Below are positions 8,073 through 30,630 of a stretch of 64,000 nucleotides of DNA, piece by piece (the first letter of the stretch is position 1; each line of letters begins with the position of its first letter). Source of the stretch: a virus; the IMG/VR virus record IMGVR_UViG_3300020221_000005, positions 1 to 64,000 of that record; one strand, written 5' to 3'. The notes beneath the pieces are model-generated. The model searched no databases and was not told the DNA's origin. It worked only from the letters and a program-made list of their open reading frames with translations. The position numbers were made by a program, and so were the translations under genes.

Positions 8073-8147
8073 GATAACGATAAAGGTATTATTGCAGGAT
8101 TTGGTCCCCTACTCTTGACGCCTTTCGGTCGGTCGCATCTTTACTGT
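8073..8147 (-). ncRNA. Repeated phage sRNA family, short type (copy 3)
   Basis: TTGACT-16-TAAACT (8181-8154); core at 8102-8140. Confidence 0.65.
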
Positions 8148-9858: not shown

Positions 9859-9906
9859 TTGTTGGCTCTTGACAAGTTTCAAAGAACCCTCTATAGTGTT
9901 ACCACA

Positions 9907-10212
9907 ATGAACCTCACTAAAAACGACGCTGGGGAGGTGCTGCACAAGCTCGCCGCCCTCGCGGACTCGCCCGACCTCATCGAGGATTATGGGCTTACAC
10001 AAGAGCAGGCTGACGCACTGCGCGACAGCGTGCCACATAACGGCGGCGAATGGACTGTTGTGCCTGAGTTTATCAATGCCGTGCGCGGCGAGATGCAAGA
10101 TCACGCACGAGTCCTCCGTAATATTGCTTACGACGCACGACATGGCGGGGAGGTTGGGCAAGCACTTCAGATTGATAAGCAAGCGAAACGATTTGAGAAA
10201 ATATTCAAATGA
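9907..10212 (+). CDS. hypothetical protein (GC-richer insert)
   Basis: start moved to ATG 9907 after promoter 9869. Confidence 0.7.
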   Translation: MNLTKNDAGEVLHKLAALADSPDLIEDYGLTQEQADALRDSVPHNGGEWTVVPEFINAVRGEMQDHARVLRNIAYDARHGGEVGQALQIDKQAKRFEKIFK

Positions 10213-10255
10213 TGTTGGCTCTTGACAAGTTTCAAAAAACCTGTATACTCTTAAC

Positions 10256-10367
10256 ATAATTAACCGTGTAGATTGCCACGGCGGGAAACCGAAAGAGCGT
10301 ATCTAAGGAACTGCTGACAATGCGGCGGCAAAGACTCCTAAAGTTTAATCAATAAACCCGCATTTTT
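10256..10367 (+). ncRNA. promoter-driven structured RNA with two predicted pseudoknots
   Basis: TTGACA-16-TATACT (10222-10249); no substantial ORF; multiple complementary segments; ends in T run. Confidence 0.55.
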
Positions 10368-10488
10368 GATTTTTTAACTCTAACGATATGACAACCATTC
10401 ACGACTTCGGATGGAGTCGAAATAATATAAATAAAATACGTTTTTATTTTTTCATATATATTTATTATCACAACTTTATATAATCCAC

Positions 10489-11373
10489 ATGAAAAAATCA
10501 GAATTAAAACAATTGATTAGAGAATGCTACAAGGAAGTCATAATAGAAAATTCAAATCCATTTTTTGACGGTAAAATTGAAGAAGAATCCAATCCATTTT
10601 TTGACAGCAAAATTGAAGACAGCAAAATTGAAAAAGAATCCAATCCATCTCACGAAACCCTCAGTGAGTATTCTGATATAAATGTGGAAGATGAGGATAT
10701 CAAAGATGCTTATGATAAAATGTTCAATGATGTAAAGAAGATAGGAAAAAAATCAGACAATCAACGATCTTATGAATATCTTAGAGAGATTCCTTTATTT
10801 AGACAAATATTGGATAAAGGATACTTTAAGACTTCTGTAAGACCAGGGGATTTGACTACCTTCTTTTCACCTTATGCGAGCACGACCGTGAAATACGAAG
10901 ACTATCTGGAAAATTGGAATGCTGCTGTTGAAAAATATGAAAAACGACATAAAAACCCTCTTACTGGAATAAAAGGATCCTTACCAGACGAATTTCGTCT
11001 GACAAAAAGGAAGGCCGAAAAACTATTGAATATTTTAAAAGCCAACAATGGAAAGCCCTTGGAGACATTCGAGCTTCTCACGCTTACAAGTCGCAATGGT
11101 GAAGATATGATAAAAATCAACTGTAAGGTTTCAAGTCTCGCCAAAATATTAACTTTAGGTATAGCAAAATCAGAATTTACCTACCTCTACGTAGCGGAGG
11201 CTAAAGGAACGTTTGCTGGCTTAGAAGGAAATATAGCAGACGACAAAGATGAACTAAACAAGCTAGGCAACGCGATACTTGCAAGTGTAGAGAAACAGGG
11301 GGGAACAGTCACCATGGGCGGTCGTAGAGTAGGTGAATTTGATAAATTTACAAGCATTTACGGACGCACTTGA
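10489..11373 (+). CDS. hypothetical, possibly virion/internal protein with MKKSELKQLIRE leader
   Basis: leader shared with 11405 and 36955; TATTTAT at 10459. Confidence 0.75.
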   Translation: MKKSELKQLIRECYKEVIIENSNPFFDGKIEEESNPFFDSKIEDSKIEKESNPSHETLSEYSDINVEDEDIKDAYDKMFNDVKKIGKKSDNQRSYEYLREIPLFRQILDKGYFKTSVRPGDLTTFFSPYASTTVKYEDYLENWNAAVEKYEKRHKNPLTGIKGSLPDEFRLTKRKAEKLLNILKANNGKPLETFELLTLTSRNGEDMIKINCKVSSLAKILTLGIAKSEFTYLYVAEAKGTFAGLEGNIADDKDELNKLGNAILASVEKQGGTVTMGGRRVGEFDKFTSIYGRT

Positions 11374-11404
11374 CAAGTTTCAAAAAACCCTCTATATAAT
11401 CCAT

Positions 11405-11620
11405 ATGAAAAAATCAGAATTAAAACAATTGATCAGAGAATGCATAAATGAATCATTCATTAATGAAAACCTTCCTGCGGGAAAAAGTGAATTAGCTAGG
11501 AAATGCGCTTTGACATTAAATTCTATAATTTCACAAATACGCAGACCTGATTTACAAGACGAAGCGGGGCGGCACGCAGCAGGGATTATAGAATTAATTG
11601 ATAAAGACAATGATTCCTAA
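11405..11620 (+). CDS. small protein with MKKSELKQLIRE leader
   Basis: start moved to ATG 11405; 5' end duplicates that of 10489. Confidence 0.7.
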   Translation: MKKSELKQLIRECINESFINENLPAGKSELARKCALTLNSIISQIRRPDLQDEAGRHAAGIIELIDKDNDS

Positions 11621-11724
11621 TATTTGATGTGGGATAAGATTTGTGGCGGTTATATCAATCAATTCGTTTATTTTGTGGTGTTGGCACTTGACAAGTTTCA
11701 AAAAACCCTCTATGATGTTACACA

Positions 11725-20037: not shown

Positions 20038-20150
20038 AATTTACTTTATTTTCAGTAAAGTGATTTGCGCACCCTCCGGTACCCTATCCTCGGCGCCTTG
20101 GAAGGTCTGGCCGGATCGTCCTTTAAGTGTCGGACACCACTTTCACTTAC
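20038..20150 (-). ncRNA. Repeated phage sRNA family, long type with 5' pseudoknot (copy 4)
   Basis: TTGACT-16-TAAACT (20184-20157); covaries with copy 1. Confidence 0.6.
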
Positions 20151-24481: not shown

Positions 24482-24552
24482 ACGATAACGCAATGTAGGT
24501 AGGAATTGGTCCCCTACTCTTGACGCCTTTCGGTCGGTCGCATCTTTATTAT
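24482..24552 (-). ncRNA. Repeated phage sRNA family, short type (copy 5)
   Basis: TTGACT-16-TAGACT (24586-24559); core at 24507-24545. Confidence 0.65.
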
Positions 24553-30547: not shown

Positions 30548-30630
30548 AGTTGAGATGCGACCGACCGAAAGGCGTCAAGAGTAGGGGACCAGGGGGTGCG
30601 CAAATTACTTTACTGAAAATAAAGTAAAAT
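30548..30630 (+). ncRNA. Repeated phage sRNA family, hybrid copy on + strand (copy 6)
   Basis: TTGACA-16-TAAACT (30514-30541); core 30553-30591; 3' tail shared with 20038-20075. Confidence 0.65.

Follow-up and report, generated by a model that had tools for sequence, protein, structure and literature searches.

The element described here lies between a GC-rich gene (9907-10212) and a gene for a 294-aa protein (start at 10489) in an array of small single-gene cassettes. The 64-kb stretch of DNA that was analysed (64,000 nucleotides, the window) is the start of a 103-kb IMG/VR virus record with a CheckV completeness of 34%. The record encodes rIIA, rIIB, a helicase and a baseplate wedge protein as well as eight tRNAs and one tmRNA, and its rIIA is at most ~41% identical to that of the nearest cultured phages. 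The rIIA, rIIB and wedge genes, the tRNAs and tmRNA and the low rIIA identity together show that the record is a piece of a large T4-like phage that has not been cultured. The surroundings of the element are a zone of cassette shuffling which holds other stubs as well. The features of the element are collected in Table 1.

Table 1. Features of the 10222 element in window coordinates
Feature	Position	Strand	Details
Sigma70-type early promoter	10222..10249	+	-35 TTGACA 10222-10227, 16-nt spacer, -10 TATACT 10244-10249
Predicted transcript body, ~110-120 nt	10256..10376	+	Predicted +1 to end of U-run
Hairpin 1, CCGUG/CACGG, loop UAGAUUGC	10264..10281	+	10264-68/10277-81, mean pair probability 0.83
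Mini-hairpin CGG-GAAA-CCG	10282..10291	+	3 bp, GNRA-type tetraloop, low pair probability (0.20)
AUCUA, proposed pseudoknot 1 strand	10301..10305	+	Complement of loop UAGAU 10269-10273
Extended hairpin 2, outer stem AGGA/UCCU	10306..10339	+	10306-09/10336-39
Hairpin 2 inner stem, register of the initial annotation, UGCUG/CGGCA	10312-16/10326-30	+	Pair probability 0.09
Hairpin 2 inner stem, preferred register CUGCUG/CGGCGG	10311-16/10323-28	+	Mean pair probability 0.76
7-bp helix AAUGCGG/CCGCAUU	10319..10364	+	10319-25/10358-64, -8.6 kcal/mol
AU hairpin GUUUA/UAAAC, inside the 7-bp helix	10343-57	+	10343-47/10353-57
U-run UUUGAUUUUUU, candidate 3' end	10365..10375	+	Directly 3' of the 7-bp helix
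Direct repeat CGGCGGGAAA / CGGCGGCAAA	10279..10332	+	10279-88 / 10323-32, 44 nt apart, one per domain
Conserved cassette tail including ATG 10388 (MTTIH..)	10377..10404	+	Identity with L006 stops at 10404

The 10222 promoter and the reading frames behind it

An initial annotation of this DNA had placed a TTGACA-16-TATACT promoter at 10222, a sibling of those at 9869, 11370 and 11688, in front of a structured RNA with no substantial open reading frame. The promoter is indeed present and agrees with the consensus at 11 of 12 positions, with a spacer inside the 16-18 nt of bacterial sigma70-type promoters. It shares the 20-mer TTGACAAGTTTCAAAAAACC with the three siblings (four copies, 0.03 expected by chance) and is clearly beyond chance. 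Transcription is predicted to start at A10256, 7 nt past the -10 hexamer. A search of IMG/VR with the promoter 20-mer gave four loci, all lacking the element. Additionally, the IMG/VR contigs L083:6556, L084:2066 and L085:1521 carry an identical stretch of ~320 nt with CTTGACAAGTTTCAAAAAAC followed by TAGAAT; its -35 hexamer and spacer are those of the promoter family in the window, and it is otherwise unlike the phage.

The 103-kb record contains 13 promoters of the strict sigma70-type pattern TTGAC[AT]-N16-18-TAYRNT. Ten of these have an ATG 6-9 nt past the -10 hexamer, which would give leaderless or near-leaderless mRNAs, two (17081 and 17333) read into tRNA genes, and the sole remainder is the one at 10222. 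Shine-Dalgarno-like (SD-like) motifs precede 10 of 85 ORFs in the whole record as compared to a background of 8.6%, which suggests that Shine-Dalgarno sequences are essentially unused by the phage. With SD-like motifs at background level and an ATG 6-9 nt past the -10 hexamer of most early promoters, it seems that leaderless and SD-less mRNAs are translated efficiently in the host.

Behind the 10222 promoter no ATG occurs at the leaderless position, 6-9 nt after the -10 hexamer. The plus-strand ORFs encode 11 (ATG 10320), 14 (TTG 10273) and 31 amino acids (ATG 10388), the last being the longest, in agreement with the annotated absence of a substantial frame. We regard the strong promoter without a gene as a solid observation.

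That one of these frames encodes a micro-protein, either MRRQRLLKFNQ (ATG 10320-10355) or the 14-aa or 31-aa product, is very unlikely, and less likely than the two serious rivals discussed below, a leader and a decayed cassette. The 11-aa ORF is kept in three of three copies of the element (the window and the metagenome contigs L005 and L006, see below), and AAGGA is found 10 nt upstream of its ATG. SD-like motifs are, however, not enriched in a phage that hardly uses them, so that the AAGGA says little for a peptide, and ATG 10320 lies within the most GC-rich, base-paired part of the element. In the frame from TTG 10273 the substitution found in L006 is synonymous (GAA to GAG) and the L006 deletion falls just past the stop codon, but with two changes among the copies this 'silent' pattern is well within chance. 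The ORF from ATG 10388 is not conserved: its 31 amino acids in the window show two non-synonymous changes in L005 and are replaced by an unrelated 19-aa fusion in L006, and it is probably a stub.

The second explanation for a promoter without a gene is that the cassette once had one, of which the start codon and frame were lost, leaving a recent functionless relic whose helices arose by chance. We take this rival seriously and consider it unlikely. It is suggested by the alignment of the promoter family, in which ATT AAC C of the element (10259-65; ATT 10259-61) stands opposite ATG AAC C of the 9869 sibling, with BLAST homology between the element and the 9869 cassette extending to 10265. A location in the shuffling zone with its other stubs and a GC content similar to that of the neighbouring GC-rich gene 9907-10212 are also in line with a decayed gene. 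On the other side, no frame matches Pfam, frame C read through its TGA giving no family at E <= 10, and the phage contains no paralogue. A relic of a zinc-ribbon gene, considered on the basis of frame C (..NC*QCGGKDS), was rejected, since Pfam gave no match and the motif has no counterpart in the rest of the phage.

Folding and 3' end of the predicted transcript

The segment 10260-10339 has a GC content of 52% and adjoins a segment that falls to 14% GC. All seven helices described in the initial annotation exist as complementarity (34 of 34 standard pairs), and the U-run follows them at 10365-10375 as claimed. In the nested ensemble only two hairpins are robust, namely hairpin 1, which is the most robust helix of the element, and hairpin 2 in the CUGCUG/CGGCGG register (probabilities in Table 1). 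The latter register consumes the GCGG required by pseudoknot 2 and thereby excludes this pseudoknot.

The nested minimum free energy (MFE) is -24 kcal/mol (z = -0.20), and 79 of 200 dinucleotide shuffles fold equally well in this test, which scores nested structures only and leaves pseudoknots unscored. The nested structure is no more stable than those of the shuffles, as would be expected for a relic with chance helices. Two non-overlapping motifs composed of a hairpin and a downstream loop complement (>= 5 nt) were found in 19 of 2000 dinucleotide shuffles. This rarity of ~1% is suggestive and speaks against a relic, with the proviso that the criteria were post hoc, chosen with the sequence already known. 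Overall, the case for a fold beyond chance is borderline.

Of the two proposed loop interactions, that of hairpin 1 with AUCUA (pseudoknot 1) has a helix of 5 bp, four of them A-U, worth -1.8 kcal/mol. Zero linker nucleotides separate stem 1 from this helix, which makes the arrangement sterically awkward, and as modelled pseudoknot 1 appears both thermodynamically and sterically weak. Pseudoknot 2 (-8.6 kcal/mol, L1 = 2 nt, L2 = 0) has the geometry of a classical H-type pseudoknot. Its 7-bp helix may be read equally as a pseudoknot or as a terminator stem of non-canonical type that closes a branched loop. The annotated double pseudoknot is a possible pairing scheme and nothing firmer: the pairs can form, but the z-score, the energy of pseudoknot 1 and the competing register in domain 2 lend the fold no support.

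A simple scan of the plus strand at 10340-10380 for a canonical intrinsic terminator (GC-rich stem of at least 5 bp, loop of 3-8 nt, U-run directly after) called none. The 7-bp helix next to the U-run closes a branched loop of 32 nt. The U-run not being part of a canonical terminator suits the other serious rival, a 5' leader or attenuator, which in our estimate has a rather low probability. Here the promoter would serve the truncated ORF at ATG 10388 and also the 294-aa gene at 10489, which would be reached by read-through, and the structured segment with the U-run would set the amount of polymerase passing. The 3' CCCGC can pair with either CGGCGG copy of the direct repeat, giving alternative long-range helices, and this is consistent with a leader. 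Likewise, ATG 10388 lies in an A/U-rich context, as do other SD-less starts of the phage, and the predicted first transcribed bases CTTAACATAATTAACC are similar to the leader of gene 9355 in L005. The lack of conservation of the ORF at 10388 argues against a leader, as does the absence of a match to a known riboswitch or leader family.

Copies of the cassette and rearrangements around it

Only two further copies of the element were found, both by a metagenome scan, on the contigs L005 (100% identical) and L006 (99%). Contig L005 has a length of 3.5 kb and is collinear with the window, with 93.7% identity over the aligned 3.5 kb and some segments at 0% divergence. Its 192-nt block 10213-10404 shows no changes, whereas divergence is 2.0-3.6% in the neighbouring gene 9907-10212 and in the 294-aa gene's leader. 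Over the 149 nt from 10256 to 10404, ~3.4 changes would be expected from the flanks and none is seen (P ~0.03), which is a point against decay.

Contig L006 (5.3 kb) keeps the 186-nt block 10219-10404, from the promoter on, with 99% identity and with flanks that differ from those in the window, since both the upstream gene and the downstream junction are others. At this junction ATGACAACCATTCACGA is joined to the tail of another gene, after which another sibling promoter follows. Found whole on different flanks, the block behaves as a separate cassette, which also argues against a relic. The changes within it are A10293G and a deletion of C10318, both at positions that are unpaired in the model. 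Two changes in 186 nt, one of them a 1-nt deletion, are nevertheless similar to the divergence of the other segments that L006 shares with the window (96-99% identity), as a decayed cassette would show.

Judged from their sequences, L005 and L006 are close mosaic relatives of the window phage. Near-identity of the element is therefore expected from drift alone and is weak evidence of selection. The homologue search and covariation check that the initial annotation had named thus produced two copies and no covariation: none of the 34 base pairs varies among the three copies (two distinct sequences; covariation score 0), so that the copies give no real evidence of selection.

The arrangement of promoters around the copies bears on a possible leader function. 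In the window and in L005 no sigma70-type promoter lies between 10222 and the 294-aa gene, and in L006 this gene is served by a separate sibling promoter and has ~70 nt of leader; both can be taken in favour of a leader. In L006, however, the element precedes only the stub and then another promoter, with no intact gene, and the 294-aa gene retains a conserved promoter-like TATATAAT directly 5' of its ATG.

More distant relatives of the element were sought in several ways. A blastn search against 50,697 phage records gave no match, and scans of IMG/VR for exact 28-mers and 16-mers returned chance matches only, for example the coding sequence of a primase zinc finger (WYCNQCGGKD). A 22-mer scan of GTDB genomes gave a single chance match in a Planctomycetaceae MAG. 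With the conserved N-terminal coding 26-mer one distant relative (L087) was detected, which lacks the element, and the flanking proteins and rIIA as queries retrieved no IMG/VR relatives. A set of 599 metagenome stretches matching the N-terminal peptide pattern was discarded, as these are mostly unconfirmed pattern matches and no evidence of a widespread family.

Gene order downstream of the element differs between close relatives (L006:312-1520 compared with 10405-11720 of the window). In L006 the element is separated from a divergent allele of the 294-aa gene (66.6% identity at the nucleotide level) by the tail of a 71-aa gene, an intergenic spacer and a sibling promoter, whereas in the window these three come after the 294-aa gene. 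The breakpoints fall at promoter copies and at a shared MKKSEL start. A protein search with the 294-aa sequence yielded six homologues; the first 25 residues, MKKSELKQLIRECYKEVIIENSNPF, are identical at 23 of 25 positions in all seven proteins, which are 40-72% identical elsewhere. The unrelated 71-aa gene at 11405 opens alike, with 54 nt that are 94-96% identical (10489-10563 and 11405-11458 of the window). This shared start could be a targeting or propeptide segment, like the capsid-targeting sequences of T4, or it could be a handle by which recombination exchanges cassettes. At 10429-10452, within the leader of the 294-aa gene, lies an all-A/U hairpin, AAAUAAAA-UACGU-UUUUAUUU, followed by a U-run. 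It is kept in L005 and in L006, in the latter directly after the sibling promoter, and might function in weak termination or in regulation.

Six other candidate loci for promoter-driven small RNAs were noticed, five on the minus strand (2163-2273, 2378-2452, 8073-8147, 20038-20150 and 24482-24552) and one on the plus strand (30548-30630). Four of the six have a common GC-rich core, GATGCGACCGACCG(C/A)AAGGCGTCAAGAGTAGGGGACC, directly behind TTGACT or TTGACA promoters and no ATG at the leaderless position; in the loci at 2163-2273 and 20038-20150 the core has diverged and the -35 hexamer is less clear. None of the six has an Rfam match at the gathering threshold or significant similarity to the 10222 element.

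A predicted early small RNA and its relation to known systems

The reading that we favour, tentatively, is that the element encodes a stand-alone early small RNA of ~110-120 nt which is ended by the 7-bp helix and the U-run. The block 10219-10404 would then be a self-contained early cassette, with a small non-coding RNA rather than a protein as its most likely product. The non-coding RNA proposed in the initial annotation, although itself a predicted molecule, is thus also the most likely outcome of this analysis, the 10222 promoter being the only one of 13 with neither a leaderless ATG nor a tRNA gene behind it. A small RNA is supported since the other strong promoters of this phage without a leaderless ATG read into RNA genes, and further by the GC-rich island with stable hairpins and by the cassette being intact on different flanks. 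The 7-bp helix (-8.6 kcal/mol) abutting the U-run, the unchanged block in L005 and the restriction of the L006 changes to positions unpaired in the model count for it as well. Against it count the MFE z-score of -0.2, the absence of a varying pair, of an Rfam family and of a canonical terminator, and the near-identity of the L005 and L006 copies, which is explicable by drift. Moreover, one of the L006 changes is an indel, as neutral decay would give, and sibling promoters with leaders exist (~70 nt in L006, ~25-30 nt before gene 9355).

In the course of events that we infer, a host sigma70-type RNA polymerase would initiate near A10256, and at least two stable hairpins would form in the transcribed 52%-GC segment, at 10264-81 and at 10311-30. 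For most transcripts the end would be the U-run (10365-75) behind the helix AAUGCGG/CCGCAUU, giving an RNA of 110-120 nt early in infection, while part of the polymerase would read through. The RNA would most likely act in trans, as a stable structured molecule binding or titrating a protein or RNA factor. A more elaborate proposal, which we consider improbable, is that the element represents a new class of phage early non-coding RNA. In its 3' half UGCUG/CGGCA would stack on AAUGCGG/CCGCAUU, the resulting H-type pseudoknot would serve both as a stop and as 3' protection, and the 5' half would adopt a second loop-to-tail fold. Early in infection such an RNA might serve as a stable decoy or as a regulator, in a host able to translate mRNAs that have neither a leader nor an SD motif.

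Antisense regulation was considered as well. The U-run can pair over 12 bp (one G-U) with the AUG-proximal AAAAAAUCAGAA of two MKKSEL genes, but the duplex energy ranks only 59-62 among 126 gene starts, and antisense control of these genes was rejected. No complementarity of at least 13 nt to the element occurs elsewhere in the genome.

Should the RNA exist, a deeply divergent and uncultured T4-like lineage would gain an early small RNA outside the known classes; this lineage already looks RNA-rich, with a tmRNA and with tRNAs that have their own promoters. To our knowledge, few small RNAs of phages have been described, most of them with no assigned function, and in vitro tests would be easy on a cassette whose promoter and end are both defined. 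If the element is a relic, it shows how promoter cassettes of the phage lose genes. Whichever of the two applies, the present results speak for neither a ribozyme nor a proven pseudoknot.

The description of the element as an undescribed RNA holds. An Rfam 15 scan of the window at the gathering threshold gave nothing overlapping 10256-10370, a scan of the 371-nt stretch 10150-10520 at E <= 10 gave no family, and ARAGORN found no tRNA or tmRNA at the element; the only copies found beyond the window are those on the two contigs. The alternative suggestion of a ribozyme finds no support, as no Rfam ribozyme model matches at E <= 10 and HDV-like and hammerhead cores fail on inspection by eye. The element resembles the double-pseudoknot ribozymes (HDV-like, twister) and the pistol ribozyme in that a hairpin loop pairs with a downstream strand, with two such interactions proposed here. 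HDV-like ribozymes are built on a nested double pseudoknot (P1-P2-P3-P1-P4-P2), begin with G at +1 and carry their catalytic C in J4/2. In the element the would-be P1 opens with U10269 instead of G, the strand pairing with CACGG is 5' of P1 rather than 3', and no C occurs at 10340-10349, behind the UCCU of the would-be P4. The would-be hammerhead core CUGACAA lacks the essential G of the consensus CUGAUGA, and the order of strands, read by eye, does not fit the pistol ribozyme.

Type III antitoxin RNAs (ToxI, CptI, TenpI and the phage 'pseudo-ToxI' mimics) have a layout of promoter, pseudoknot-forming units, terminator and ORF start to which the element is similar, its units being possible pseudoknots and alike in topology. 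These units are, however, not near-identical tandem repeats, and the downstream ORF is a stub. A type III antitoxin RNA would have near-identical tandem repeats of 34-45 nt, a terminator and a ToxN, CptN or TenpN gene. The element has only a 10-nt direct repeat at 44-nt spacing, a Pfam search of the flanking and downstream proteins revealed no family, ToxN included, and an antitoxin RNA was rejected. The put RNA of HK022, a cis-acting processive antitermination RNA with two stems, is similar in layout, a two-stem RNA directly 3' of a strong early promoter. Since the genes downstream of the element have their own promoters, there is no obvious need for antitermination of this type.

The stable RNAs species 1 and 2 (RNA C and D) of T4 lie in the transcript of the tRNA cluster and are processed from it. 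By description they are comparable to the RNA predicted here, as small RNAs of a T4-type phage with tRNA genes, but the 10222 element has its own promoter and lies ~7 kb away from the tRNA cluster. Phages also form promoter-proximal small RNAs, such as the oop RNA and the short pR' '6S' transcript of lambda, and early small RNAs of Pseudomonas phages have reportedly been mapped by dRNA-seq and ONT-cappable-seq. Although the element has no sequence or Rfam relation to the RNAs of lambda and the Pseudomonas phages, is antisense to no gene here and has an atypical putative terminator, it is similar to them in its host-type promoter, a predicted ORF-less transcript in the range of ~80-200 nt, an end formed by a hairpin and a U-run, and its position in an early region.
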